From assembly GCA_963745915.1 (NCBI GenBank), contig CAVUZA010000001.1:14622-78621 (forward strand): 64,000 nucleotides of DNA, written 5' to 3'. The notes under the pieces are model-generated. The model did not search any database. It saw only the letters and a list, made by a program, of their open reading frames with translations, and was not told the DNA's origin. Numbering within the stretch: position 1 is the first letter of the stretch; the number at the start of each line of letters is the position of its first letter. Of the stretch, positions 11,372 to 56,448 are shown in pieces. The translations under genes and the position numbers were made by a program. Origin of the DNA: an uncultured Solirubrobacterales bacterium. Lineage in GTDB: Bacteria; Actinomycetota; Thermoleophilia; Solirubrobacterales; 70-9.

Positions 11372-12226
11372 CTACTCACCAGTGGATGAAGGATTGTGCG
11401 CGCCATGCGCGGACAATCCTTCATCGAGGCCGAAGACGTCGACGGGTCCCGCCCCCTCTCCAATGGAGCTGAGGCCGTTGGCCACCGCGTCGCTCGCGAT
11501 CCGGTTGGCTTGGCGGGCGGCCTCCAGGGGCGTGAGGCCGAGGGCGAGGTGGGCGGCGAGGGCGGAGGAGTGGGTGCAGCCGGAGCCGTGGGCGGCGCCG
11601 TTCTCGTGACGCTGGCCGGCGATCTCCTCCGCCTCGCGCCCGTCGAAGAAGAGGTCGACCAGGCGCTCGCTGTGGCCGCCGGTGACGACCACCGCGCGCG
11701 GACCGAGCGCCAGCACCTCGCGCGCCAGATCCTCCTGGGAGTGCGGCTCCTCGGAGCCGGTCAGGGCGATCGCCTCGGGGATGTTGGGGGTGACGACGGT
11801 GGCCAGCGGCAGCAGGCGCTCGACCAGGGCGGCGCGGGCGTCCTCGGCCAGCAGCACGGCGCCGCTCTCGGCGACCATCACCGGATCGACGACGACCGGC
11901 GCCTCGCCGAGCATGCTCAGCGCCTCGACCACCGCCTCGACCGTCTCCGCCGTGCCCAGCATCCCGACCTTGACCGCGTCGACGCCGATGTCGTCGGCGA
12001 CCGCTCCCACCTGGGCCAGGATCGTCTCCGGCGAGACCGCCTCGACCGCCTCGACCCCGACCGTGCTCTGCGCCGTGATCGCGGTCACCGCCGTCATCCC
12101 GTGCACGCCGCAGCGCGCGAACGCCTTCAGGTCCGCCTGTATCCCCGCCCCACCGCCGGAGTCCGAGCCGGCGATCGAGAGCACCGCTGGAACGCGCTCC
12201 TGGCTCATGCCCCGCACCCTAGACAC
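11372..12226 (-). CDS. thiD: Hydroxymethylpyrimidine/phosphomethylpyrimidine kinase
   Basis: 284 aa. [31 protein letters not shown], ...[15 protein letters not shown]. Alternative start MSQE at 12208. Confidence 0.9.
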
Positions 12227-27237: not shown

Positions 27238-27262
27238 TGAGCGGAGCATGGTAGCGGGTCGA

Positions 27263-27339
27263 GAGAGCGCCGGGCGCCCCTGTCAAAACGCTCGGCAGGA
27301 GCCTCGCTTGAGTGTTTTGACAGGGGCGCCCGGCGCTCT
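27263..27339. repeat. Copy B (inverted orientation) of the family-1 palindromic repeat
   Basis: AGAGCGCCGGGCGCCCCTGTCAAAAC / centre GCTCGGCAGGAGCCTCGCTTGAGT / GTTTTGACAGGGGCGCCCGGCGCTCT. The arms pair perfectly. It lies between the yceD stop (27352) and the rpmF start. Confidence 0.85.
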
Positions 27340-27351
27340 TCCGTCCTCTGC

Positions 27352-27903: not shown

Positions 27904-28422
27904 ATGGGTTGCCGCCGAGATTACGGAATGAGCCGATTCGACTGGACACCGGAGGTCTACCTGGAGCGCATCCGCGCCCAGCTGCCGCGCTACGACGAGC
28001 TGCAGGAGCAGGCGATCGCCGCGATCCCCTTCCCGCCCGCCCGCGTGCTCGAGCTGGGGATGGGCACCGGGGAGACGACCCGGCGCCTGATCGAGGCCTA
28101 TCCCGAGGCCTGGGTGATCGGCCTCGACTCGAGCCCCGACATGGTCTTCCGCGCCCGCCAGACCTACGACGACGTGCAGCTGGCCCGCATGGAGGACCCG
28201 CTCCCCGACGGCCCCTGGGACCTGGTCATCTCAGTCCTCTCGGTCGCCGACCTGACCGACGACCAGCTCCAACCCCTCTGCCGCCGCATCAAGGAGCACT
28301 CCAAGTCCCTCGTAGTGGCAGACACCTTCGAGGAGGAAAAGCTAAAAGCCCTCCTAACCTGGTCAGACGCCAAAATCTCCTGGCAAGCCGACGACCTGGC
28401 CGTAGCAGTAGCGACGTATTGA
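27904..28422 (+). CDS. Class I SAM-dependent methyltransferase
   Basis: 172 aa with motif I VLELGMGTGETT. Alternative start MSRFDW at 27928. Confidence 0.75.
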   Translation: MGCRRDYGMSRFDWTPEVYLERIRAQLPRYDELQEQAIAAIPFPPARVLELGMGTGETTRRLIEAYPEAWVIGLDSSPDMVFRARQTYDDVQLARMEDPLPDGPWDLVISVLSVADLTDDQLQPLCRRIKEHSKSLVVADTFEEEKLKALLTWSDAKISWQADDLAVAVATY

Positions 28423-28500
28423 GAGAGGCCGGGCGCCCCTCCCAAAACACTCCAGCGAGGCTCCTGCCGAGCGTTTTGGGAGGGGCGCCCGGCCTCTCCC
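28421..28500. repeat. Copy C of the family-1 palindromic repeat
   Basis: GAGAGGCCGGGCGCCCCTCCCAAAAC / centre ACTCCAGCGAGGCTCCTGCCGAGC / GTTTTGGGAGGGGCGCCCGGCCTCTC. The 26-nt arms are perfect. It sits between convergent stops at 28422 and 28510. Confidence 0.85.
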
Positions 28501-28509
28501 GCTAAGACG

Positions 28510-29001
28510 CTATTCCTGCTGATCCAGGTCGACGACGGGCTGCTGCTGCTCGTCCTCGTCCCGCCCAGCCAACCGGTCCCGCCCCCGCTGCACCGCAGCG
28601 AGGAACTTCTGCAGATTCACCTCGAGCGTGTTGAGGATCTCGTCGGCGTAGTCCTCGGCGCCGAGCCGGATCTCGCGCTCGCGGGTGCGGGCGTCCTCGA
28701 CGATCTCGTCGGCGGCCCGCTCGGCCTGCTTGGTTACCTCCTCGTCGGAGATCAGGCGGGCCTGCTGCTCGCGCGCCTCGCGCACGATGCGCTCGGCCTC
28801 GCGCTTGGCCTCGGCCAGCATCTCCTGGCGCTCCTTGACGATCCAGCGCGCCTGCTTGATCTCCTCGGGGATCGTCGCCCGCATCTGGTCGAGCAGGTCG
28901 TAGATCTCCTCGCGATCGACGCGCACCTGGTCCGTGAGCGGCACCGGCCGCGCGTTGTGGACCACGTCGTCGAGCTTGTCTATTAGAACGAGAACGTCCA
29001 T
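28510..29001 (-). CDS. Conserved coiled-coil protein of unknown function
   Basis: 163 aa. MDVLVLIDKLDDVVHNARPVPLTDQVRVDREEIYDLLDQMRATIPEEIKQARWI, then a charged coiled coil. Relatives are often auto-annotated as ATP-synthase-subunit-like. No function can be supported from the sequence. Confidence 0.6.
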   Translation of the reverse strand: MDVLVLIDKLDDVVHNARPVPLTDQVRVDREEIYDLLDQMRATIPEEIKQARWIVKERQEMLAEAKREAERIVREAREQQARLISDEEVTKQAERAADEIVEDARTREREIRLGAEDYADEILNTLEVNLQKFLAAVQRGRDRLAGRDEDEQQQPVVDLDQQE

Positions 29002-32397: not shown

Positions 32398-35300
32398 TCA
32401 CAGCATCCATCCCTGAAGTGGCATCCACTTCTGCACTCGCGAATTGCCCGAGTCGAGGACCCAGAAGTCACCATTTTTCGCCAGGGCGATCCGGAGCCAG
32501 GAGCGAGTATCGAACTGCCCTTCGCCGGAGCCGGCCTGCCCGAACTTGGTGATGAATTCGCCAGATTCATTGAATACCTGAATTCGATTGGCTTCTGCAT
32601 CGGCTGCCCAAACGTAGCCCCGATCGTCAACCGCGATATCGGTGATCTCGGTGAACTGGCCGTCGCCGGTGCCCTGAGAGCCGAATCGTTGTAGCACGTT
32701 GCCTTCCTGATCCACGAGCGCAATTCGGCGCCGCCAATGTTCGGCGACCCAGAAGTTGCCGTTCGGCGCCAAGTCGATGGCCCATGGCTTACCCAGGAAG
32801 CCCAGCGAAAGCGATTTGACGTATTCGTCGGCCGGGTTGAACTTATCAATGCGGTCCGCTTCGTAGTCGGCGACCCAGATGTTGTCGCTGGAGTCGACCA
32901 ACACGTCGACCGGGAACGCGACCTGACCGGGTTCCCGCCCGTAGGTCGCCAGGGTGGCGAGCAGCTGCCCGGTGCGGCTGTACTTGACCAGCCGATTTCC
33001 CATCCCACAGACCACGTAGATATCTCCGTTGGAGTTGACCGAGGAGGCAAGCGGGTCGTTGCAAGTCGCGAACTGGCTTAGGTATTCGCCCGATTTCGAG
33101 AAGTTCTGCAAACGGTCGTTACCCCCATCCGCGACCCAGAGCGTCCCATCGGTGGAATCGACCGATACGCCCGCAGCGTATTCGAACTGACCGTCACCGT
33201 GCCCTTCGCTGCCGAATGTGGAGTCATAGGTAGGCGAAAAGCTTCGCCCACTCCACTTCTGCACTCGCGAATTGCCCGAGTCGAGGACCCAGAAGTCACC
33301 ATTTTTCGCCAGGGCGATCCGGAGCCAGGAGCGAGTATCGAACTGCCCTTCGCCGGAGCCGGCCTGCCCGAACTTGGTGATGAATTCGCCAGATTCATTG
33401 AATACCTGAATTCGATTGGCTTCTGCATCGGCTGCCCAAACGTAGCCCCGATCGTCAACCGCGATATCGGTGATCTCGGTGAACTGGCCGTCGCCGGTGC
33501 CCTGAGAGCCGAATCGTTGTAGCACGTTGCCTTCCTGATCCACGAGCGCAATTCGGCGCCGCCAATGTTCGGCGACCCAGAAGTTGCCGTTCGGCGCCAA
33601 GTCGATGGCCCATGGCTTACCCAGGAAGCCCAGCGAAAGCGATTTGACGTATTCGTCGGCCGGGTTGAACTTATCAATGCGGTCCGCTTCGTAGTCGGCG
33701 ACCCAGATGTTGTCGCTGGAGTCGACCAACACGTCGACCGGGAACGCGACCTGACCGGGTTCCCGCCCGTAGGTCGCCAGGGTGGCGAGCAGCTGCCCGG
33801 TGCGGCTGTACTTGACCAGCCGATTTCCCATCCCACAGACCACGTAGATATCTCCGTTGGAGTTGACCGAGGAGGCAAGCGGGTCGTTGCAAGTCGCGAA
33901 CTGGCTTAGGTATTCGCCCGATTTCGAGAAGTTCTGCAAACGGTCGTTACCCCCATCCGCGACCCAGAGCGTCCCATCGGTGGAATCGACCGATACGCCC
34001 GCAGCGTATTCGAACTGACCGTCACCGTGCCCTTCGCTGCCGAATGTGGAGTCATAGGTAGGCGCGCCTATCGTTGTAAACGATTCCGCTTCTCCGACCG
34101 AAACGCCTTCCGGACTCGAGGCCGTAGCCCGATAGTAGTAAGTCGTCTCCGGTTCCAGGCCAGAGACGAAGGTTTGAACATCGATCGGCTGGTCCCCGTC
34201 GCCGATGCCTTCAGGACTACCTGGGGTTGTCACGGCGTGATCGAAGCCGTGCTCGTCACCAAGTGTTTTGATGTCTTCAAAATACGTATCGGCATCGACA
34301 TACTGCGCCTGCCAGGCCGTTTCGTACCCTTGCGGGTTGATCTTCGCCGGAAGCCACGCAGATTCCTCAGCCGGCGCGACTACCGGCGCCGGGTCGATCG
34401 TGGGCTCTTTTCGTTCGGTCCCTGTGACATAGATCGCGCCAGGCGACGTGACCGTCAACGCAGGCGACATGCGAATCGGCGTATCCGTATTCAACCATGG
34501 GCATTCAGAACCAGCCGCCTCGCCAAGATTCGTCGAGCCCCTGACCAGTGCTGGGTTTCCGCCAGCCAGGTTGGTCGATTCCCCGTCCCACTCAATGCTG
34601 CAGTCGACCGGGACCGCCGCCGTCGGACAGGAGACATCAAAACCTGTTTCCCCTGCAGGCCTTAGCCGACCTTCGCTTCCGAAACGCCAGCTCAATGTCG
34701 CCGCAACCGGCAGCCCGCTCATGGTGACTGTGCATTCAGCTCCACCGAGCTCGCTGCACCCGCCAAATGCCCAAGAGGAAATCGACATCGACAGCGGGTG
34801 GCCCGCCGTCGCGCTATTTGAGAACTCGAGCGTCGATTCCGAGCAGGACACTCTGTCCAATTCAGCGTAAATAGTGAATTCATCGCCGCTGGCGGAGATC
34901 GTCGTCCCCGAGTCGAACCGATCCGGCAGACTGCACGTGAGCTGGGACGTTTTGCACAGAGTGGTTCCCCATTCCGGTGTCTGAACCAACTCTGGCCCGA
35001 AGGCACGCCCAGCACTCGATGTTTTGTAGCCGTTGGATGGAATCCTTGCCACAAGTCGATAGCGGTCTGCGAGCGTCGCCGCGCCTTCCGTAGCTTCTTG
35101 TGTCACATGCACAAGCGACGTCCCGCTCGTCGACACCGACCCCGTCGCCTTAGACCATCCAGTCGATCTGTGATATTCGAAATAATATTCGACTTCCGGA
35201 TAAGGCGACGGTTCCACATCGCCCTCCAGGATGACGGTCCCCGTCGATCCGAGTTCCATCGTCGCGGGACCGATGATATTGAGGGTCGGCGGTTCGGGGT

Positions 35301-36435
35301 CGGAAACTTCACAGAAGTTCGAGGTTTCCCCTTCCCCCGTCAAGGTTCGGTAGTTGTCCTTCAGGGGCTCAACAAGCGCTCCGTTGGGAAGCTGTTTCAG
35401 CGGCATGGCGTCGCAATAGTCGGCGATCTCGACGAGACTGAGGAATTTCCCACTTTCGCTCATCACCGGTATTGCCCACCCTCCGCCTGGATACGGATCG
35501 GTAACGCTCTCGGCGTACTCATGCGATGTGCTGTGCGCCAACGATTCCGAAAGAGTTTTGCCGCATCCGGGCTGGTAGCCATACTGAAGGAAGAAGCTGT
35601 AGGCCACGCCGCTTCCATATTCGTGATACGCGCAGAAGCTTCCGGTGAAACCTTCTTCGTAGGTGGTCCCCGGAGGGGCATATATGAGTATCTGCGTATT
35701 CGGGGTCATCTCCCAACCGGTCTTTTCCGCAATGGAAGAGACCTCATGCTGCACATCGAGATGGCCCACGTTGGTTGGAGTGGTGACCGATTTGTCAACG
35801 AAGATGTCGGTTGAAGGATCGAAATGCACGACGTTTGTCGGCTTTTCGGGGTACCTGACCGGGGTATATGAGTTCCAAAAATACTGAGTGAGGATTCCCT
35901 GATAATCGGAGCCCGAAAGGCCTTCGAAGAGAAGGGAGAGGGCCGAACGCACCTGCGAGTAGCTTTCAGCTTTTTCCCAGTCGCTCCCCCAGAACACGAT
36001 GTGGGGTTCAGGTTCCTTCTGCACCCCACCGCCGAAGTAGGTCAGCGTGCTTTCGCTTGACAGACCCGATATGTAATCGTCCCCAAACGTCGGAAGATCG
36101 CTTTTACCCCCGCGCCGACCGGGGCGTAGTTCGGCAGCGGTACCGCGCCCACGTCGAGGCTGAAAATGCACTGCCCTGTTCTCCGCCCAGGACGGCATGG
36201 GAGTACTGTGCCCCAGACCCTTGTGGAAATAGTCGTGCTCGAGGCCCGGCGCCCGCAGCCCGCGGACGTGGGGGTTGACGTTTCGCCGGGTGTGGGGATT
36301 TGCCGAGGCGCCTACGGCAAAGAGCAAAAGGCCGATTGCCGCGGCTCCTATGAAACTCGCAAGTCTTCCTGCGTGCAAATCGATCCGTGCGAAGCTATCG
36401 GGTCTCCCGTGAGCCATCTTCCCCCAACCTTTCAT
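32398..36435 (-). CDS. Large (1345 aa) membrane-anchored/secreted multidomain protein: N-terminal domain of unknown family (SHEYAESVTDP), two FN3-like modules, a Cys-rich region, and two identical six-bladed NHL beta-propellers
   Basis: Intact ORF. N-terminal hydrophobic anchor FIGAAAIGLLLFAVGA. YYFEY and TTYYYRA FN3-like signatures. 12 NHL-type blades (…GQF..P.GVAVD..G.lWVAD..N.RIQ.F…). G+C is lower than the flanks. Confidence 0.8.
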   Translation of the reverse strand: MKGWGKMAHGRPDSFARIDLHAGRLASFIGAAAIGLLLFAVGASANPHTRRNVNPHVRGLRAPGLEHDYFHKGLGHSTPMPSWAENRAVHFQPRRGRGTAAELRPGRRGGKSDLPTFGDDYISGLSSESTLTYFGGGVQKEPEPHIVFWGSDWEKAESYSQVRSALSLLFEGLSGSDYQGILTQYFWNSYTPVRYPEKPTNVVHFDPSTDIFVDKSVTTPTNVGHLDVQHEVSSIAEKTGWEMTPNTQILIYAPPGTTYEEGFTGSFCAYHEYGSGVAYSFFLQYGYQPGCGKTLSESLAHSTSHEYAESVTDPYPGGGWAIPVMSESGKFLSLVEIADYCDAMPLKQLPNGALVEPLKDNYRTLTGEGETSNFCEVSDPEPPTLNIIGPATMELGSTGTVILEGDVEPSPYPEVEYYFEYHRSTGWSKATGSVSTSGTSLVHVTQEATEGAATLADRYRLVARIPSNGYKTSSAGRAFGPELVQTPEWGTTLCKTSQLTCSLPDRFDSGTTISASGDEFTIYAELDRVSCSESTLEFSNSATAGHPLSMSISSWAFGGCSELGGAECTVTMSGLPVAATLSWRFGSEGRLRPAGETGFDVSCPTAAVPVDCSIEWDGESTNLAGGNPALVRGSTNLGEAAGSECPWLNTDTPIRMSPALTVTSPGAIYVTGTERKEPTIDPAPVVAPAEESAWLPAKINPQGYETAWQAQYVDADTYFEDIKTLGDEHGFDHAVTTPGSPEGIGDGDQPIDVQTFVSGLEPETTYYYRATASSPEGVSVGEAESFTTIGAPTYDSTFGSEGHGDGQFEYAAGVSVDSTDGTLWVADGGNDRLQNFSKSGEYLSQFATCNDPLASSVNSNGDIYVVCGMGNRLVKYSRTGQLLATLATYGREPGQVAFPVDVLVDSSDNIWVADYEADRIDKFNPADEYVKSLSLGFLGKPWAIDLAPNGNFWVAEHWRRRIALVDQEGNVLQRFGSQGTGDGQFTEITDIAVDDRGYVWAADAEANRIQVFNESGEFITKFGQAGSGEGQFDTRSWLRIALAKNGDFWVLDSGNSRVQKWSGRSFSPTYDSTFGSEGHGDGQFEYAAGVSVDSTDGTLWVADGGNDRLQNFSKSGEYLSQFATCNDPLASSVNSNGDIYVVCGMGNRLVKYSRTGQLLATLATYGREPGQVAFPVDVLVDSSDNIWVADYEADRIDKFNPADEYVKSLSLGFLGKPWAIDLAPNGNFWVAEHWRRRIALVDQEGNVLQRFGSQGTGDGQFTEITDIAVDDRGYVWAADAEANRIQVFNESGEFITKFGQAGSGEGQFDTRSWLRIALAKNGDFWVLDSGNSRVQKWMPLQGWML
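32424..34064. repeat. Perfect tandem duplication: two identical 813-bp units (32424-33236 and 33252-34064) with a period of 828 bp, inside the NHL gene
   Basis: Raw lines and all overlapping ORF translations are identical at an offset of 828 (for example ORFs 32737..33081 = 33565..33909, and 33199 vs 34027). The units are separated by a 15-nt junction. 828 = 276 codons. Confidence 0.95.
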
Positions 36436-45379: not shown

Positions 45380-45981
45380 GGCCGCTCCTTCCGGGCGGAT
45401 GGCTCCGCCAGTCGCTCAACATACTTGGCCACCAGATCGCACTCGACGTTGATCCGGTCCCCCGGCTTCAGCGCGCCGAGGCTGGTCCGCTCCAGGGTCT
45501 CGGGGATCAGGGAAACGGCAAGCCAAGAATCGCCCAAATCGGCGATCGTCAGGCTGACCCCGGCGAGCGCGACCGAGCCCTTGTCGATCGCGTAGCGCAG
45601 CAGCCCCGGCTCGAGCCCGACCCGCAGGCGGCGGGCGAAGCCGTCGTCCTCGAGCGCGAGCACCTCGCCCACGCCGTCGACGTGGCCCTGGACGATGTGG
45701 CCGCCGAGCCGGTCGGAGGCGCGCAGCGCCAGCTCCAGGTTGACGCGGGCGCCGGGCTCAAGGCCGTCAAGGGCGGTGACCGCCAGCGTCTGGTTCATCG
45801 CCTCGGTCGCGAAGCCCTCGCCGTCGACCGCGGTCGCGGTCAGGCAGACGCCGTCGACCGCGACCGAGTCGCCCTCGCCGACCTGCGGCGCCAGCGCCGT
45901 CGCGATCCGCAGCCGGGCGCCCTCCTCGCCGCGCTCGAGCGCGGCGACGGTGCCGACGTCCTGGATCAGCCCGGTGAACAT
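45376..45981 (-). CDS. ribE: Riboflavin synthase alpha chain
   Basis: The ATG at 45979-45981 shares one base with the rib[28 protein letters not shown], and a second repeat [10 protein letters not shown]. Confidence 0.92.
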
Positions 45982-47084
45982 CACCACTCCCGGAAGCGGG
46001 TCTCGATCAGCGTGTCCTCCGCCCGCGGGTCGAGCGGCTCGGTGCGGCCGCCGCCGAGCAGGAGCGGGGCGACGAAGACGCGCGCCTCGTCGACCTGGCC
46101 GGCGGCGGCGAAGGCGGCGGCCAGGGTGCGGCCCCCCTCGAGCAAGAGGCTGGTGAGGCCGCGGCGGCCGAGCTCGGCGAGGGCGGCCTCGACCCCGTCG
46201 GCGACCAGCACCTCCGCCCCGGCGTCGCGCAGGGGCGCGGCGTCGGCCTCGGGCGCGACGACGACGAGCAGCGGCGACTCGTCCAGCGTCGCCAGCAGCC
46301 GCGAGTCGAGCGGCGTCCGCGCCCGGCGGTCGAAAACCACCCGCAGCGGCTGCCGCACCCCCGTCCCCCCCGTTCCGGTGCGCTTTTTGCTCTCCATAGG
46401 TACATAAGGCGCACCGGAAGCTTCGGGGCGGGCGGTTAGCAGCGGGTCGTCGGCGAGGACGGTGCCGATGCCGACCGCGATCGCGTCGGATTCGGCGCGC
46501 CAGCGATGGACCAGCTCGCGGCTGGGCTCGCCGGAGATCCAGGGCGAGTCGCCCGGCGCGGTGGCGGTCTCGCCGTCGAGCGAGATCGCCAGCTTCAGCG
46601 TCACCAGCGGCAGGCCGGTGCGGGCGTGCTTGCGGAAGGGCTGGTTGAGCAGCCGCGCGGCGCTCGCCTCCTCGCCCGCGGCCAGCTCGACCGCGACGCC
46701 GCCGTCGCGGAGGATGCCCGGTCCGCGGCCGGACGCCTTCTCGCTGGGGTCGTCGGAGGCGACCACGACGCGGGCGACGCCGGCCTCGAGCAGCGCCTCG
46801 GTGCAGGGCGGCTGGCGGCCGCTGTGGGCGCAGGGCTCGAGCGTCACGTAGATCGTCGCCCCGGCCGGGTCCGCGCCGCGCGCAGCGCAGTCGGCCAGCG
46901 CCGCGCGCTCGGCGTGCAGGCCGCCGAGCTCGGTGTGCCAGCCCTCGCCGATCGTCTCGCCGTCGCGGACGAGGACGGCGCCGACCAGGGGGTTGGGGCT
47001 GACCCGTCCCCGGCCGCGCTCGGCCAGCTCGAGCGCCCGCTGGAGATGCTCCCGATCAGTGCCTGTGAGCTGGGGATTCATCAT
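45981..47084 (-). CDS. ribD: Bifunctional diaminohydroxyphosphoribosylaminopyrimidine deaminase / 5-amino-6-(5-phosphoribosylamino)uracil reductase
   Basis: NPLVGAVLV, HAERAAL, TLEPCAHSGRQPPC, then the reductase half. Tandem ATGs at 47084 and 47081; the track start at 47099 is TTG. The gene contains the 47-nt element at 46373-46419. Confidence 0.92.
   Translation of the reverse strand: MMNPQLTGTDREHLQRALELAERGRGRVSPNPLVGAVLVRDGETIGEGWHTELGGLHAERAALADCAARGADPAGATIYVTLEPCAHSGRQPPCTEALLEAGVARVVVASDDPSEKASGRGPGILRDGGVAVELAAGEEASAARLLNQPFRKHARTGLPLVTLKLAISLDGETATAPGDSPWISGEPSRELVHRWRAESDAIAVGIGTVLADDPLLTARPEASGAPYVPMESKKRTGTGGTGVRQPLRVVFDRRARTPLDSRLLATLDESPLLVVVAPEADAAPLRDAGAEVLVADGVEAALAELGRRGLTSLLLEGGRTLAAAFAAAGQVDEARVFVAPLLLGGGRTEPLDPRAEDTLIETRFREW
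46373..46419. repeat. Family-2 47-nt palindromic element, embedded in frame in ribD
   Basis: TTCCGGTGCGCTTTTTGCTCTCCATAGGTACATAAGGCGCACCGGAA. Its termini match the copy at 54064-54110. It is a local AT-rich patch encoding SGAPYVPMESKKRTGT. Confidence 0.8.
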
Positions 47085-47099
47085 TGACTGACGAGTCAA
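47084..47099. promoter_or_regulatory. Palindrome TTGACT-GACG-AGTCAA abutting the ribD ATG in the ribD / glycosyltransferase divergent spacer
   Basis: Perfect 6+6 inverted repeat read directly from the sequence. The function (operator or promoter element) is not established. Confidence 0.3.
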
Positions 47100-52495: not shown

Positions 52496-53182
52496 TCAGA
52501 TGGCGCCGGCCGCTTTGGCGATCTCGGCGTAGGCGGCGGCCGGGTCGGCGGCGCCGAAGATCGCCGAGCCGGCGACGAAGAGGGAGGCGCCGGCGGCGGC
52601 GACCGAGCCGGCGGTGGCGGCGTCGATGCCGCCGTCAACCTCGATCCGGGCGTTGCCGGCCAGCTCGGCGAGGCGGGCGACCTTGTCGGGCGAGCCCTCG
52701 ATGAAGGCCTGGCCGCCCCAGCCCGGGTTGACGGTCATGCAGAGGACGACGTCGGCGAGGCCGCGCAGCTCGGCGACCGCCTCGACCGGCGTCCCCGGGT
52801 TGAGCGCGACCCCGGCCAGGCAGCCGAGCTCGCGGATCGCGGCCAGGGTGCGGTTGGCGTGCGGCGTCGCCTCGGCGTGGAAGGTGATCGAGTCTGCACC
52901 GGCGGCGGCGAAGGCCTCGAACTGGGTCTCGGGCCGGGCGACCATCAGGTGGACGTCGAGCGCCCCGCCGACGGCGTGGACGCGCTCGGCGATCGAGCCG
53001 GCGACCGCCGGCCCGAGCGTGATCGGCGGCACGAAGTGGCCGTCCATCACGTCGACGTGGATCACCCGGGCGCCGGCCGCGAGCACCTCGTCGACCTGCT
53101 CGCCGAGGCGGGCGAAGTCGGCCGAGAGGATCGAGGGCGCGACCCGGGGCGAGGCGAGCAGCTCCAGCATCCGCTCGCTCAT
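52496..53182 (-). CDS. rpe: Ribulose-phosphate 3-epimerase
   Basis: ATG at 53180-53182. SILSADF, HVDVMDGHFVP, MTVNPGWGGQ, VDGGI. Confidence 0.93.
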   Translation of the reverse strand: MSERMLELLASPRVAPSILSADFARLGEQVDEVLAAGARVIHVDVMDGHFVPPITLGPAVAGSIAERVHAVGGALDVHLMVARPETQFEAFAAAGADSITFHAEATPHANRTLAAIRELGCLAGVALNPGTPVEAVAELRGLADVVLCMTVNPGWGGQAFIEGSPDKVARLAELAGNARIEVDGGIDAATAGSVAAAGASLFVAGSAIFGAADPAAAYAEIAKAAGAI

Positions 53183-53430
53183 ACCGGCCTCAGCATCGAG
53201 CCGCCGCAGATCTGGCAGGTCATGTCCTCGGTGGAGCTCATCCGGGCGATGGTTTGGTGCTCGCCGCAGTCGGGGCACTGCGAGACGAGCTCGAAGCGGC
53301 GCAGACAGTACACGCAGCGCAGGCGGCCGGGCAGCTGGGTCGGGCGCAGCCAGGGCTCGCCGCAGCCCGGGCAGGGCGCCCGGCGCATGAAATCCCCCTC
53401 GCTGCCTCCCTCACTCATCGCGACCATCAT
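53179..53430 (-). CDS. Small Cys-rich zinc-ribbon protein
   Basis: CPGC...CVYC...CPDC...CQIC (four CxxC pairs). The stop overlaps the rpe ATG (ATGA). Start is uncertain (53430, 53418 or 53388). Confidence 0.6.
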   Translation of the reverse strand: MMVAMSEGGSEGDFMRRAPCPGCGEPWLRPTQLPGRLRCVYCLRRFELVSQCPDCGEHQTIARMSSTEDMTCQICGGSMLRPV

Positions 53431-54751
53431 CGCGAAGCCGCCAGATGAAGAAGCCGGTGGTCCCGTCCCGGTCCGGGCGCAGCTGCCGCGACTCGCCGCC
53501 CTCCACCTGCGCCTGGTTCTCGCGGCGGCTGATCGTGCAGGTCGAGTAGACCAGCGTGCCGCCGGGCCGCAGCGCGGCGCGGGCGGCGGCGAGCAGCTCG
53601 GCCTGCAGCGCGGCGAGGCGCTCGATCGCGGCCGGCGACTTGCGCCAGCGGGCGTCGGGGCGCGAGGCCAGGGCGCCGAGGTCCGAGCAGGGCGCGTCGA
53701 GCAGGACGCGGTCGAAGACCGGGCCCATCCCGGCGGCGGCGCCGGCGTCCGCCTCGAGCACGGTGACGCTGCGCAGCCCGAGGCGCTCAGCCTGGGCGGC
53801 GACTTCGGCGGCCCGCTCGGCGTCGCTCTCGACCGAGATCAGCTCGCCACGGTCGCCGGTGCGGGCGGCGATCTGGCCGGTCTTGATCCCCGGCCCGGCG
53901 CAGAGGTCGAGCACCCGCTCCCCCGGGCGGGGGTCGAGGGCCTCGACCGCGGCCGCAGAGCCGCGGCTCTGCGGCGTCAGCTCGCCGGCCGCGACCAGCT
54001 CCGGGACCGCGTCGCCGGTGCGCCCCTCGACCACGATCAGCTCGCCGTCCCCGCCCGAGCCGGTTCCGGTGCGCTTTATGCCGGCATCTCCGGCATAAAG
54101 CGCACCGGAAGGGATTTCGGCGGCGCGGGCGTCGACGCCGGCGGCGCGGAGGCGCTCGAGGACGGACTCGCGGCCGCTGCGCAGGGTGTTGACTCGGTAG
54201 GCGTGCTCGGGCGGCTCGTTGCAGGTGGCGAGCAGCGAGCGGGCGTCGTCGGCGCCCAGCTCCTGCCACCACATCCGGGCCAGCCAGAGCGGCGCGGAGT
54301 GGGCGACGGCGGCGGCCTCGGGGGTCGAGTCGTCGCCGAGCAGGGCCTCGGTCAGCGCCGCGCGCTCGCGGGCGGCACGGCGCAGGACGGCGTTGACGAA
54401 GCCGGCCGCGTGGGCGGCGCCGGCGCCCTTGGCCAGCTCGACCGCCTGGCCGACGGCGGCGTGGTCGGGGGTGGCGTCGGCGAAGAGCAGCTCGTAGAGG
54501 CCGAGCCGCAGGGCGGCGAGCACCGGCGGGTCGAGCCGCTCCGGGGGGCGCTCGGCGAGGCGCCCGATCGCCGCGTCGGCGGTGCCGCGCCGTTGCACGG
54601 CGCCGTAGGCGAGGCGCTGCGCCTGGGCGCGCTCGCGGCCGTCGAGGCCGCGCTCGGCGGCGGCGGCGCGGAAGGCGCGCTCGGTGTGGGCGCCGTCCTC
54701 GAAGCTCGCCCGCAGGACGGCGAAGGCGAGCTCGCGCGCCGGCGAGATCAC
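53411..54751 (-). CDS. rsmB: 16S rRNA (cytosine967-C5)-methyltransferase RsmB
   Basis: The GTG at 54749-54751 overlaps the fmt stop (GTGA). NusB-like N-terminus, LDLCAGPGIKT, LLDAPCSDLG, LVYSTCT. The gene contains the 47-nt element at 54064-54110. Confidence 0.9.
   Translation of the reverse strand: MISPARELAFAVLRASFEDGAHTERAFRAAAAERGLDGRERAQAQRLAYGAVQRRGTADAAIGRLAERPPERLDPPVLAALRLGLYELLFADATPDHAAVGQAVELAKGAGAAHAAGFVNAVLRRAARERAALTEALLGDDSTPEAAAVAHSAPLWLARMWWQELGADDARSLLATCNEPPEHAYRVNTLRSGRESVLERLRAAGVDARAAEIPSGALYAGDAGIKRTGTGSGGDGELIVVEGRTGDAVPELVAAGELTPQSRGSAAAVEALDPRPGERVLDLCAGPGIKTGQIAARTGDRGELISVESDAERAAEVAAQAERLGLRSVTVLEADAGAAAGMGPVFDRVLLDAPCSDLGALASRPDARWRKSPAAIERLAALQAELLAAARAALRPGGTLVYSTCTISRRENQAQVEGGESRQLRPDRDGTTGFFIWRLRDDGRDE
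54064..54110. repeat. Family-2 47-nt palindromic element, embedded in frame in rsmB
   Basis: TTCCGGTGCGCTTTATGCCGG-CATCT-CCGGCATAAAGCGCACCGGAA. The 21-nt arms are perfect. It encodes SGALYAGDAGIKRTGT. Confidence 0.85.
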
Positions 54752-55653
54752 AGCTTCGGGACCGGGTGGCCGCGCAGGTAGGCGTCGGCCGCCATCGGCC
54801 GGCCGCCGGGCGGCTGCACGACCTCGAGCCGCAGCGCGCCCTGGCCGCAGCCGAGCAGCAGCGCCCCCCACTCGGCCCGCATCTCCCCGGCGCGGACGCC
54901 GACGTCGACGGCGCGGGCGCGGCGCACCCCGAGCCGCTCGCCGCCACCGACCTCGAGGTAGGCGCCGACGTGCGGGGTCAGGGCGCGGACCTTGCGGGCC
55001 AGCTCGGCGGCCGGCCGGCCGGGGTCGAGGCGGCGCTCGCCGGCGGCGATCTTCTCGGCGTAGGACGCCTCGCCGTCGTCCTGCTCGCTGAGCTCGAGGC
55101 GGGCCTCGGCGAGCAGGTCGAAGGCGCGCACGAGCAACTCCCCGCCCAGCGTCGCCAGCCGCTCGGAGAGGGTGGCGAAGTCGTCCTCGGCGCCGATCGC
55201 GGCCTCCTCGCAGAGGGCGATGGGGCCGGAGTCGAGGCCCTCGGTCAACTGCATCACGCAGACCCCGGTGCGCTGCTCGCCGGACATGATCGCCCGCTCG
55301 ATCGGCGCCGCGCCGCGCCAGCGCGGCAGCAGCGAAGGGTGGACGTTGAGCAGCGGCCAGGCGGAGAGCAGCGGCTCGCGGATCAGCTGGCCGAAGGCGC
55401 AGACGGCGAGCGCCTCGGGGGCGGCGGCGCGGATCGCCGCCAGCGCCTGCTCGTCGTTGACGTCGGCGGCCTGCAGCAGCTCGATGCCGAGCTCGCGGGC
55501 GGCCTCGGCGGCGGGCGGCGACTGGGTGCGCCGGCCGCGGCCGCGGGGGCGGTCGGGCGGGGTGACGACCAGCAGCGGCCGGTGATCCGAGCCGGCGAGG
55601 ACGCGCAGGACGGTCGCCGCGAACTCCGAGGTGCCTAGGTAGACCGTCCTCAC
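54748..55653 (-). CDS. fmt: Methionyl-tRNA formyltransferase
   Basis: 301 aa. VYLGTSEFA, NVHPSLLPRWRGAAPI. Confidence 0.95.
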   Translation of the reverse strand: MRTVYLGTSEFAATVLRVLAGSDHRPLLVVTPPDRPRGRGRRTQSPPAAEAARELGIELLQAADVNDEQALAAIRAAAPEALAVCAFGQLIREPLLSAWPLLNVHPSLLPRWRGAAPIERAIMSGEQRTGVCVMQLTEGLDSGPIALCEEAAIGAEDDFATLSERLATLGGELLVRAFDLLAEARLELSEQDDGEASYAEKIAAGERRLDPGRPAAELARKVRALTPHVGAYLEVGGGERLGVRRARAVDVGVRAGEMRAEWGALLLGCGQGALRLEVVQPPGGRPMAADAYLRGHPVPKL

Positions 55654-56362: not shown

Positions 56363-56395
56363 GGCTCAATTCTATGGAGCCGCCGCGCGCGGGTC

Positions 56396-56438
56396 GCGTT
56401 CGCCTTTTGTCGGGCAGAGGTCGACAAAAGACGAACGC
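56396..56438. repeat. 43-nt hairpin between the priA stop and the def start
   Basis: GCGTTCGCCTTTTGTCG / 9-nt loop / CGACAAAAGACGAACGC. The 17-nt arms have one mismatch. Confidence 0.75.
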
Positions 56439-56448
56439 GGCGGCGGCG

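Follow-up and report, generated by a model that had tools for sequence, protein, structure and literature searches.

A perfect palindrome in rsmB of an uncultured Solirubrobacterales bacterium is probably a long-resident copy of a dispersed 47-nt hairpin repeat

The palindrome and its host gene

The DNA considered here is a 64,000-nt stretch of contig CAVUZA010000001.1 (assembly GCA_963745915.1) from an uncultured Solirubrobacterales bacterium, and the whole of this stretch is referred to as the window. Its minus strand carries rsmB, encoding a 16S rRNA m5C967 methyltransferase, and a palindromic element lies within this gene at 54064-54110. In its 446-aa form (database protein P0001) rsmB occupies 53411..54751 on the minus strand, within an open reading frame (ORF) spanning 53411..54871. 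The gene was assigned from its Pfam domains (NusB, RsmF-B ferredoxin-like and Methyltr_RsmB-F) and from synteny, the gene order at the locus being def-fmt-rsmB-Zn-ribbon-rpe. An 83-aa Cys-rich, Zn-ribbon-like ORF (53179-53430, minus strand) overlaps the 3' end of rsmB, a position that is kept in all related loci examined.

The element consists of TTCCGGTGCGCTTTATGCCGG-CATCT-CCGGCATAAAGCGCACCGGAA, 47 nt that pair as a perfect stem of 21 bp closed by a 5-nt loop, exactly as described in a first-pass annotation made from the sequence alone. That annotation had also placed the palindrome in frame, and the minus-strand ORF does read through it as SGALYAGDAGIKRTGT, preceded by (P), the surrounding translation being ...EIPSGALYAGDAGIKRTGTGSGG... 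or, as also given, ...AAEIPSGALYAGDAGIKRTGTGSGGDGE.... The 21-nt arm is unique to 54064-54110 in the window, with one occurrence per strand, and was matched by none of 100 dinucleotide-preserving shuffles when up to three mismatches were allowed. A fold of the element, suggested at first pass as a check, was calculated with 20-nt flanks (87 nt) and gave about -61 kcal/mol on either strand (z ~ -7), and none of 200 shuffles folded as well. The 47-mer by itself gave -41.8 kcal/mol, and this copy ranked 14th in stability among the 123 listed copies of the family described below. The palindrome extends imperfectly outwards into the flanking codons (54043..54131, unstranded; 42-nt arms, 79% complementary), and these flanks pair in the fold. 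Chance or artefact was ruled out as the source of the palindrome, given that no shuffle produced the arm and that the element recurs in at least 49 independent short- or long-read assemblies.

The element contributes approximately 15-16 codons to rsmB, in a variable segment ahead of the methyltransferase core. Alignment with E. coli RsmB (PDB 1SQF) covered query residues 35-207 and 256-418 and skipped the inserted stretch, in agreement with the earlier placement of the palindrome between the NusB-like part and the methyltransferase domain. In an AlphaFold2 model, which is indicative at most with a mean predicted local distance difference test score (pLDDT) of 64.5, residues 213-236 are coil with a pLDDT below 50 and lie between two strands. 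The residues at the centre of the insert vary among orthologues. We infer that the 16 extra RsmB residues may form a passenger peptide in a predicted disordered surface loop, and conservation at the rsmB element would appear to act on the nucleic acid rather than on the protein.

A dispersed family of 47-nt hairpins

Further copies were found by scanning for exact termini (TTCCGGTGCGC-N20-30-GCGCACCGGAA) in one genome per species. The scan yielded at least 119 stretches with at least 125 copies from at least 49 assemblies, and all family-wide counts (125, 123 or 122 copies; 49 assemblies) rest on these stretches. Exactly 47 nt was the length of 123 of the 125 listed copies. The genome-wide search advised in the first-pass annotation has thereby produced other copies, mostly from Solirubrobacterales; among the matches listed, the hosts were Solirubrobacterales or unclassified Actinomycetota metagenome-assembled genomes (MAGs), with one exception labelled Chloroflexota. 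One complete 3.0-Mb chromosome contained at least eight strict copies. The outer arms are near-invariant over 11-15 nt across the family (TTCCGGTGCGCyTT...AArGCGCACCGGAA), while the inner stem and loop vary in sequence and retain their complementarity, and the consensus over 122 aligned listed copies was nnGCTTCCGGTGCGCCTTTTGC...GCATAAAGCGCACCGGAAGGG. The spacing from arm to arm is constant at 25 nt in the listed copies, and no listed site has more than one 47-nt unit.

R1, a covariance model derived from the family, identified just five more, slightly divergent copies in the 772 kb around the seeds. On the 64-kb window R1 recovered the rsmB copy (minus strand, 68.7 bits, E = 5e-15), a second copy in ribD and one weak relative. 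The second copy (46373..46419, minus strand, R1 64.8 bits) lies in frame in ribD (45981..47099, minus strand; identified by tblastn to five other Solirubrobacterales loci at 67-78% identity) and is read as SGAPYVPMESKKRTGT. Its 11-nt termini are identical to those of the rsmB copy, as are its orientation and frame relative to the gene. Its inner stem is imperfect, with 16 Watson-Crick pairs, two G.T pairs and three mismatches as read by eye, confirming the earlier observation that the interior of the ribD copy has diverged while the rsmB copy is perfect.

The weak relative at 56389-56445 (R1 14.7 bits, E = 0.13) lies in the spacer directly upstream of def and has the palindromic sequence CGCGTTCGCCTTTTGTCG-GGCAGAG-GTCGACAAAAGACGAACGCG. 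Its inner core (CCTTTTGT/ACAAAAG) is as in the 47-nt family and its outer arms differ. Two variant elements, at L065:4893-4947 and in the rsmB linker of locus L202, have the length and core of the family (GCGC-TTAT...ATAA-GCGC), and their outer arms (CGCCCGGGCGC... and CCGAGTGAGCC...) differ from those of the family yet pair. These variants with other complementary arms suggest a wider superfamily with several arm types.

The gene context of the 123 listed copies was assessed with ORFs called with the support of GC content at third codon positions (GC3). A single stop codon lies 1-15 nt upstream of 60 of the 123 copies, six copies are positioned between convergent stop codons, 18 (~15%) are inside ORFs, these being rsmB, ribD and about 16 others, and the context of the remaining 39 was unclassified. 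Each of the three frames is represented among the intragenic copies (SGAPY..KRTG, LPVR..KGAPE and FRCA..KAHRK), and the conserved entity is therefore DNA and not a peptide. Approximately a quarter of the copies (34 of 125 listed) are directly preceded by ATGA (or GTGA). In 29 of these 34, a relay ORF of 20-24 codons starts from the ATG of ATGA, runs through the whole hairpin (M-S/T-FRCAF......KAHRKG..) and ends with a TGA that overlaps the RTG at which a downstream ORF of 80 aa or more begins. The junctions with relay ORFs are mutually non-homologous, their 73 flanking proteins falling into 55 clusters, and two homologous junctions without the element are plain ATGAGC overlaps. Copies survive just where they are transparent to translation: after stops, at ATGA overlaps and in frame in genes. 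At four loci from different genomes (L021, L030, L078 and L099) an identical sequence, GATTATCTGC, adjoins the element, and these are probably one orthologous operon junction.

Several other identities were considered for the element and rejected. Ordinary coding sequence was ruled out, as distant RsmB orthologues lack the segment entirely and copies of the family occur in three frames and between genes as well; the first-pass description of an in-frame insertion of a repeated palindrome, as opposed to a segment conserved as protein in distant RsmB, is upheld by the same data. Only a tRNA in the window reached the gathering score in Rfam 15, and at the element itself microRNA-hairpin models fell far under threshold, so that no known RNA family was found. 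Viral contigs gave no family matches, and a phage origin was set aside. A single motif of the DNA uptake sequence or uptake signal sequence type (DUS/USS) was excluded because there are no lone arms in the window and the spacing is always 25 nt. The integron attC site, for which conserved ends, a variable palindromic centre and a position after stops might speak, was dropped as the copies are single and dispersed in housekeeping operons, with no cassette arrays. A search of the literature on repeats in Solirubrobacterales retrieved nothing relevant, and with no description found in the resources searched the family is apparently undescribed.

History of the rsmB site and upkeep of the stem

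The rsmB site was compared in the DNA of 87 orthologues, consisting of 86 fetched loci and the window. R1 matched in 24 of the 86 fetched loci and in the window, all at one junction except L181, and the same codon position is filled in 24 of the 87 orthologues with the window counted. RsmB proteins of the filled clade are ~72-78% identical to the window RsmB; most of the close orthologues (74-79% identity) have ASGAPYxxxxxIKRTGSE at the same place and a few are without it. Neighbour-joining placed the filled alleles, and with them a few copies at the site that have decayed or diverged, in a single clade. Outside this clade the alleles are empty at the site and have a 61-residue ancestral segment (..PEAxWPLA..), the exception being L202 with its variant palindrome. 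At least four empty lineages are nested within the filled clade (L122; L152, L130 and L141; L132 and L134; L120), so that both filled and empty alleles, the comparison of which had been proposed at first pass, were available among the orthologues.

Filled alleles have the layout GCC GCT [TCCGG...45 nt...CCGGA] AGC GAG TGG. The L141 allele (GCT AGC GAG, with GCT joined directly to AGC) equals a filled allele minus exactly 45 nt, TCCGG...CCGGA, and comparison of L141 with filled alleles gives a net gain at rsmB of 45 nt, or 15 codons. L120 and L122 retain the TTCCG of the element (GCT TCC GAG/GAT), a remnant that looks like an excision footprint, and the other empty alleles have GGC, as in the outgroup. 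With respect to the insertion boundaries, the empty alleles GCT TCC GAG/GAT and GGC appear to fit different deletion registers or the ancestral state. The sequence at the site has diverged in L125, L146 and L202 and is palindromic all the same; in L127 and L155 the element seems to have decayed. At least five other species (L033, L056, L058, L106 and L116) have the ribD copy too, again at an unchanged codon position.

Judged from these alleles, the rsmB site is occupied across many species and is evidently old, not a recent arrival. The ribD site, shared between species in the same way, is old as well. The first-pass annotation had taken the perfect palindrome as the sign of a younger insertion. 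As a copy stands at the same codon in 24 of the 87 orthologues the site is old, and a younger insertion is unsupported.

The perfection of the stem was also examined in the family at large. Perfect 21/21 palindromes make up 13 of the 123 listed copies, which indicates that perfection is common in the family, and the orthologous rsmB copy of L147 has a fully complementary stem as read by eye. In the 122 aligned listed copies ten inner pairs vary and remain complementary, and pairing was 88.5% in the true register as against 31-52% with partners slid by 1-3 columns. Covariation in the family amounted to 210 double-change cells, a number that none of 500 shuffles reached (shuffles gave 131), and the score for 19 orthologous rsmB copies was 0.189 vs 0.077 in shuffles (0 of 500), values to be read with the caution that related or homogenised palindromes can covary without selection. 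Compensated changes at rsmB extend to the outer arms, in L124 and L157 (GCGAC/GTCGC) and in L131 (TTGCGG/CCGCAA). The outer arms of 17 filled rsmB alleles have an identity of 0.95, a figure somewhat inflated by the picking of alleles with a relaxed near-consensus pattern, which excluded L125, L146, L155 and L127. Third codon positions of the arms are 0.97 identical in these alleles. In the protein-conserved rsmB flanks the identity is 0.62 at third positions, compared with 0.86 at the first two codon positions, and in the inner 15 nt of the element it is 0.46.

Copies within a genome resemble one another. The 25-nt centres at different loci of the same assembly are 0.683 identical, as against 0.588 between assemblies (Mann-Whitney p = 1e-20). 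CAWBLE has the centre CCCAC/GTGGG at all sampled loci, the ribD copy included, DATMIH and OY970236 have centres of GTGGCC types, and in complete chromosomes there are pairs of centres identical at 24 of 25 positions at loci more than 100 kb apart. Given both compensation and the homogenisation of centres within genomes, perfection of the stem does not date the insertion, contrary to the first-pass assumption. The perfect stem reflects homogenisation or selection, not age, and homogenisation combined with arm-to-arm compensation is the most economical account of a perfect palindrome at an old site.

These data make it probable that the rsmB palindrome is a copy of an apparently undescribed dispersed 47-nt hairpin family of the same kind as repetitive extragenic palindromes (REP), Rickettsia palindromic elements (RPE) and mycobacterial interspersed repetitive units (MIRU), nearly restricted to Solirubrobacterales, which resides at an old inherited site and has had its stem homogenised. 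One copy would have entered the variable RsmB linker in the ancestor of a species clade and would then have been inherited, with several later losses, one type of which may have left the TTCCG footprint. The stem would be kept up by compensatory change from arm to arm and by exchange of centres between copies of the same genome, the latter perhaps where the identical arms prime template switching or gene conversion, or through an enzyme. Selection on the folded strand may be an extra contributor to the intact hairpin. The element would spread or convert via its identical arms and persist as translation-neutral, and the perfect stem in the window would derive from recent homogenisation rather than recent insertion.

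Several observations weigh against an old, homogenised copy, in addition to the selected alleles behind the arm identity and the ambiguity of covariation described above. Identity of centres was 0.66 to orthologues elsewhere and 0.70 to copies of their own genome (p = 0.14); this difference is not significant, so that concerted evolution must be called partial. Within the window itself, the centre of the rsmB copy is unlike that of the ribD copy. Two loci beyond the main clade are also occupied: L181, whose sister L190 is empty, has a family copy at the homologous P-A^E junction, and L202 has its variant palindrome at the same rsmB junction. Either insertion favours this junction as a hot spot, or the element arrived before the main clade arose and was then lost many times, so that repeated gain at an rsmB hot spot competes with a single old gain.

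The means of mobilisation raise further objections. A tblastn search with E. coli RayT over 1.15 Mb of DNA, made up of the window, the rsmB loci and 119 loci centred on elements (49 assemblies), returned nothing better than E = 1.7, this being a weak search for distant RAYT. The genes bracketed by two copies (L023 and L102) were not transposase-like, as judged by reading their translations without a database search; we take them to resemble an oxidoreductase and a DUF559-type protein. Direct repeats of at least 6 nt flanking the listed copies were no commoner than in shuffled flank pairs, so that no general target-site duplication was found that would point to transposition. The one exception is the repeat ATGAGC...RTGAGC of the junction class, which the element could equally carry.

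Alternative explanations

The hairpin could instead be an exapted cis-acting RNA element, protecting against 3'-exonucleases, causing RNA polymerase to pause or terminate when translation lags, or providing a processing site, with the rsmB and ribD copies tuning their operons. We consider this unlikely, although a number of features would suit it. All classified copies are in or adjoin translated RNA, whether 1-15 nt after stops, in relay ORFs or in frame, compensatory change preserves the stem even at the orthologous coding site, and the arms are conserved above synonymous sites. For REPs, which are the nearest analogues, positions downstream of ORFs have been reported and a role as RNA elements is assumed (PMC3733652). 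The polarity of the stem, however, is the opposite of that predicted for such an RNA. Mismatches in the sense-strand stem of after-stop copies were C.A in 72 cases vs G.T (G.U) in 23, or 39 vs 14 when counted per after-stop copy (p = 0.0008), and the sense-strand fold was weaker than the antisense fold in 43 copies vs 12 (p = 1.3e-5). The weaker sense-strand stem argues against plain selection for a stable stem in the sense mRNA. Avoidance of stop codons was checked by hand as a source of the C.A excess and does not account for the asymmetry; the intragenic copies have no C.A/G.T strand bias. Further, no U-tract followed the stem in the copies read, there is no Rfam family, the rsmB copy has been lost or has decayed in several lineages that retain the gene, and a generic hairpin would not need sequence-specific conservation of its outer stem. 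The first-pass suggestions that the perfect stem might influence translation or replication, or serve as a target for recombination or nucleases, are likewise speculative.

The better fold of the antisense (template) strand fits a single-stranded DNA form over mRNA, and it bears on two further proposals. The first is that a trans-acting factor, a protein or an RNA-guided enzyme, recognises the invariant arms on a folded single strand, preferably the template, and homogenises the copies, including those in housekeeping proteins. This is quite unlikely in our estimation, but if true the 47-nt hairpins would be more than tolerated passengers and would form the cis half of a lineage-wide Solirubrobacterales system, the genome-specific centres would record co-evolution of cis and trans components, and targeting would explain why the rsmB junction has been used repeatedly.

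The second proposal is that the element is a DNA site for a lineage-specific trans factor, which might bind or cleave hairpins or cruciforms (an HUH enzyme or a recombinase) or be a nucleoid or replication protein, and this is very unlikely. That the arms would serve as its recognition sequence, with genome-specific centres arising from co-evolution with the factor, is no less doubtful. Such a site would be consistent with the 11-nt arms that are near-invariant across species beside a genome-specific centre, with the constant length of 47 nt, and with the filling of the same rsmB junction in separate lineages, which suggests targeting. Against this, no candidate protein was found near the copies, no lone arms occur in the window apart from full elements, and there is neither a target-site duplication nor a conserved tag for cleavage (GTAG or CGTC, for example).

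A recent insertion into rsmB of this genome, with the perfect palindrome marking a young copy, is highly improbable: the copy is indeed perfect and among the most stable, and the window allele has six extra nucleotides (GAAATC) on its left flank that are in no other orthologue and a right flank diverged from the other filled alleles, which could be a scar of re-insertion or conversion, but the same codon position is filled in 23 other orthologues that form one clade with the window, stems as perfect are found elsewhere in the family and at the old rsmB site of L147, and compensation maintains stems. It is possible that the resident sequence at the old rsmB site was recently refreshed by conversion or re-insertion.

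Other repeats in the window and relation to known families

The window also contains repeats of other kinds. An unrelated palindromic family is present in three copies (1769-1860, 27257-27346 and 28404-28517), each an inverted repeat of 90-115 nt that has the core GGGCGCCCCTCCC..AAAAC; its arms score 84-89% for complementarity inside one copy, and 85-92% when loci are compared. Also unrelated to the 47-nt family is an inverted repeat at 11385-11425, 19 nt in length with a 3-nt loop (GATGAAGGATTGTGCGCGC / GCGCGGACAATCCTTCATC, 95% complementary). A low-GC island at 32398-36435 (minus strand; 58-63% GC vs ~73% elsewhere) encodes a 1345-aa protein in which a long segment is present twice at a spacing of 828 nt (276 aa), 300 nt of it (32424-32723 and 33252-33551) being 100% identical. 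As read by eye, the protein looks like a secreted one of the NHL-repeat type, possibly horizontally acquired or recently duplicated.

With the REP and REPIN sequences of Proteobacteria the 47-nt family shares the form of short, dispersed, lineage-specific hairpins at tens or more per genome. REPINs combine long vertical persistence with similarity within the genome. Most REPs follow closely on an ORF, in gaps that separate unidirectional or convergent genes, and occasional copies are intragenic (PMC3733652), and the positions of the present copies are alike, 66 of the 123 listed being within 15 nt of a stop and 18 intragenic. REPs also have a GTAG or CGTC tetranucleotide tag at the end of the palindrome (PMC3733652), whereas neither is at or beside either end of the 47-nt consensus (122 copies). 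The unit described here is longer, 47 nt with a 21-bp stem vs typically 20-40 nt, its copies are not in inverted doublets, and its hosts belong to the phylum Actinomycetota. In REP systems a RAYT gene, encoding an IS200/IS605-type Y1 transposase, is flanked by family members as a REPtron. No RAYT match to the E. coli RayT query was beside any of the 119 sampled loci, and the relay ORF associated with approximately a quarter of the listed copies (34 of 125 in the ATGA class, 29 complete) is no feature of REPs.

RPEs are palindromic repeats in frame in unrelated housekeeping genes, to which they add a tolerated peptide (PMC10969869). In-frame insertion of this sort is seen in rsmB, ribD and about 16 other ORFs (18 of the 123 listed copies). 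An RPE, however, is ~100-150 bp long and gives a family-typical peptide in one frame, whereas the present unit has 47 nt and is read in three frames, most of its copies are extragenic, and both its host (Solirubrobacterales, not Rickettsia) and its sequence are unrelated.

MIRUs insert at the start codons of operon genes and have an internal ORF coupled to the downstream gene by a -4 overlap (PMC12548453; PMC3184786). The 29 of 34 junction copies with an ATGA...RTGA relay resemble this arrangement, as do the empty homologous junctions with plain ATGA overlaps, and MIRUs, with units of ~40-100 bp, are also hosted by Actinomycetota. MIRUs differ in typically forming tandem arrays (variable number tandem repeats, VNTR) and not long perfect hairpins, in their Mycobacterium host, and in the tetranucleotide direct repeats reported at filled sites. 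The 47-nt family has one unit per site, is strongly palindromic and also occurs after terminal stops and in genes; it is set apart from MIRU by organisation and host, not by sequence comparison. A classical MITE, or miniature inverted-repeat transposable element, has terminal inverted repeats and a fixed-length target-site duplication; the 47-nt unit is an inverted repeat throughout. As defining features of REP, RPE and MIRU are each lacking, the 47-nt hairpins are classed here as a new family among the small dispersed repeats of bacteria, a kind of element already known.

The family provides a clean example from a little-studied order of soil actinobacteria that is known mainly from MAGs. For annotation, inserts of 15-16 residues of the SGAxY...KRTG type (or LPVR.../FRCA...) and 21-codon pseudo-genes should be expected in such genomes. 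One tiny repeat occupies all three known 'harmless' niches, behind stops, at start codons with a MIRU-like relay ORF, and in genes as an RPE-like insert. At the rsmB site, empty, filled, decayed and excised alleles form a natural series in which the arms of the repeat are much more conserved than the synonymous sites of the host gene, so that the homogenisation of very short palindromes, from arm to arm and from copy to copy, can be tested directly.

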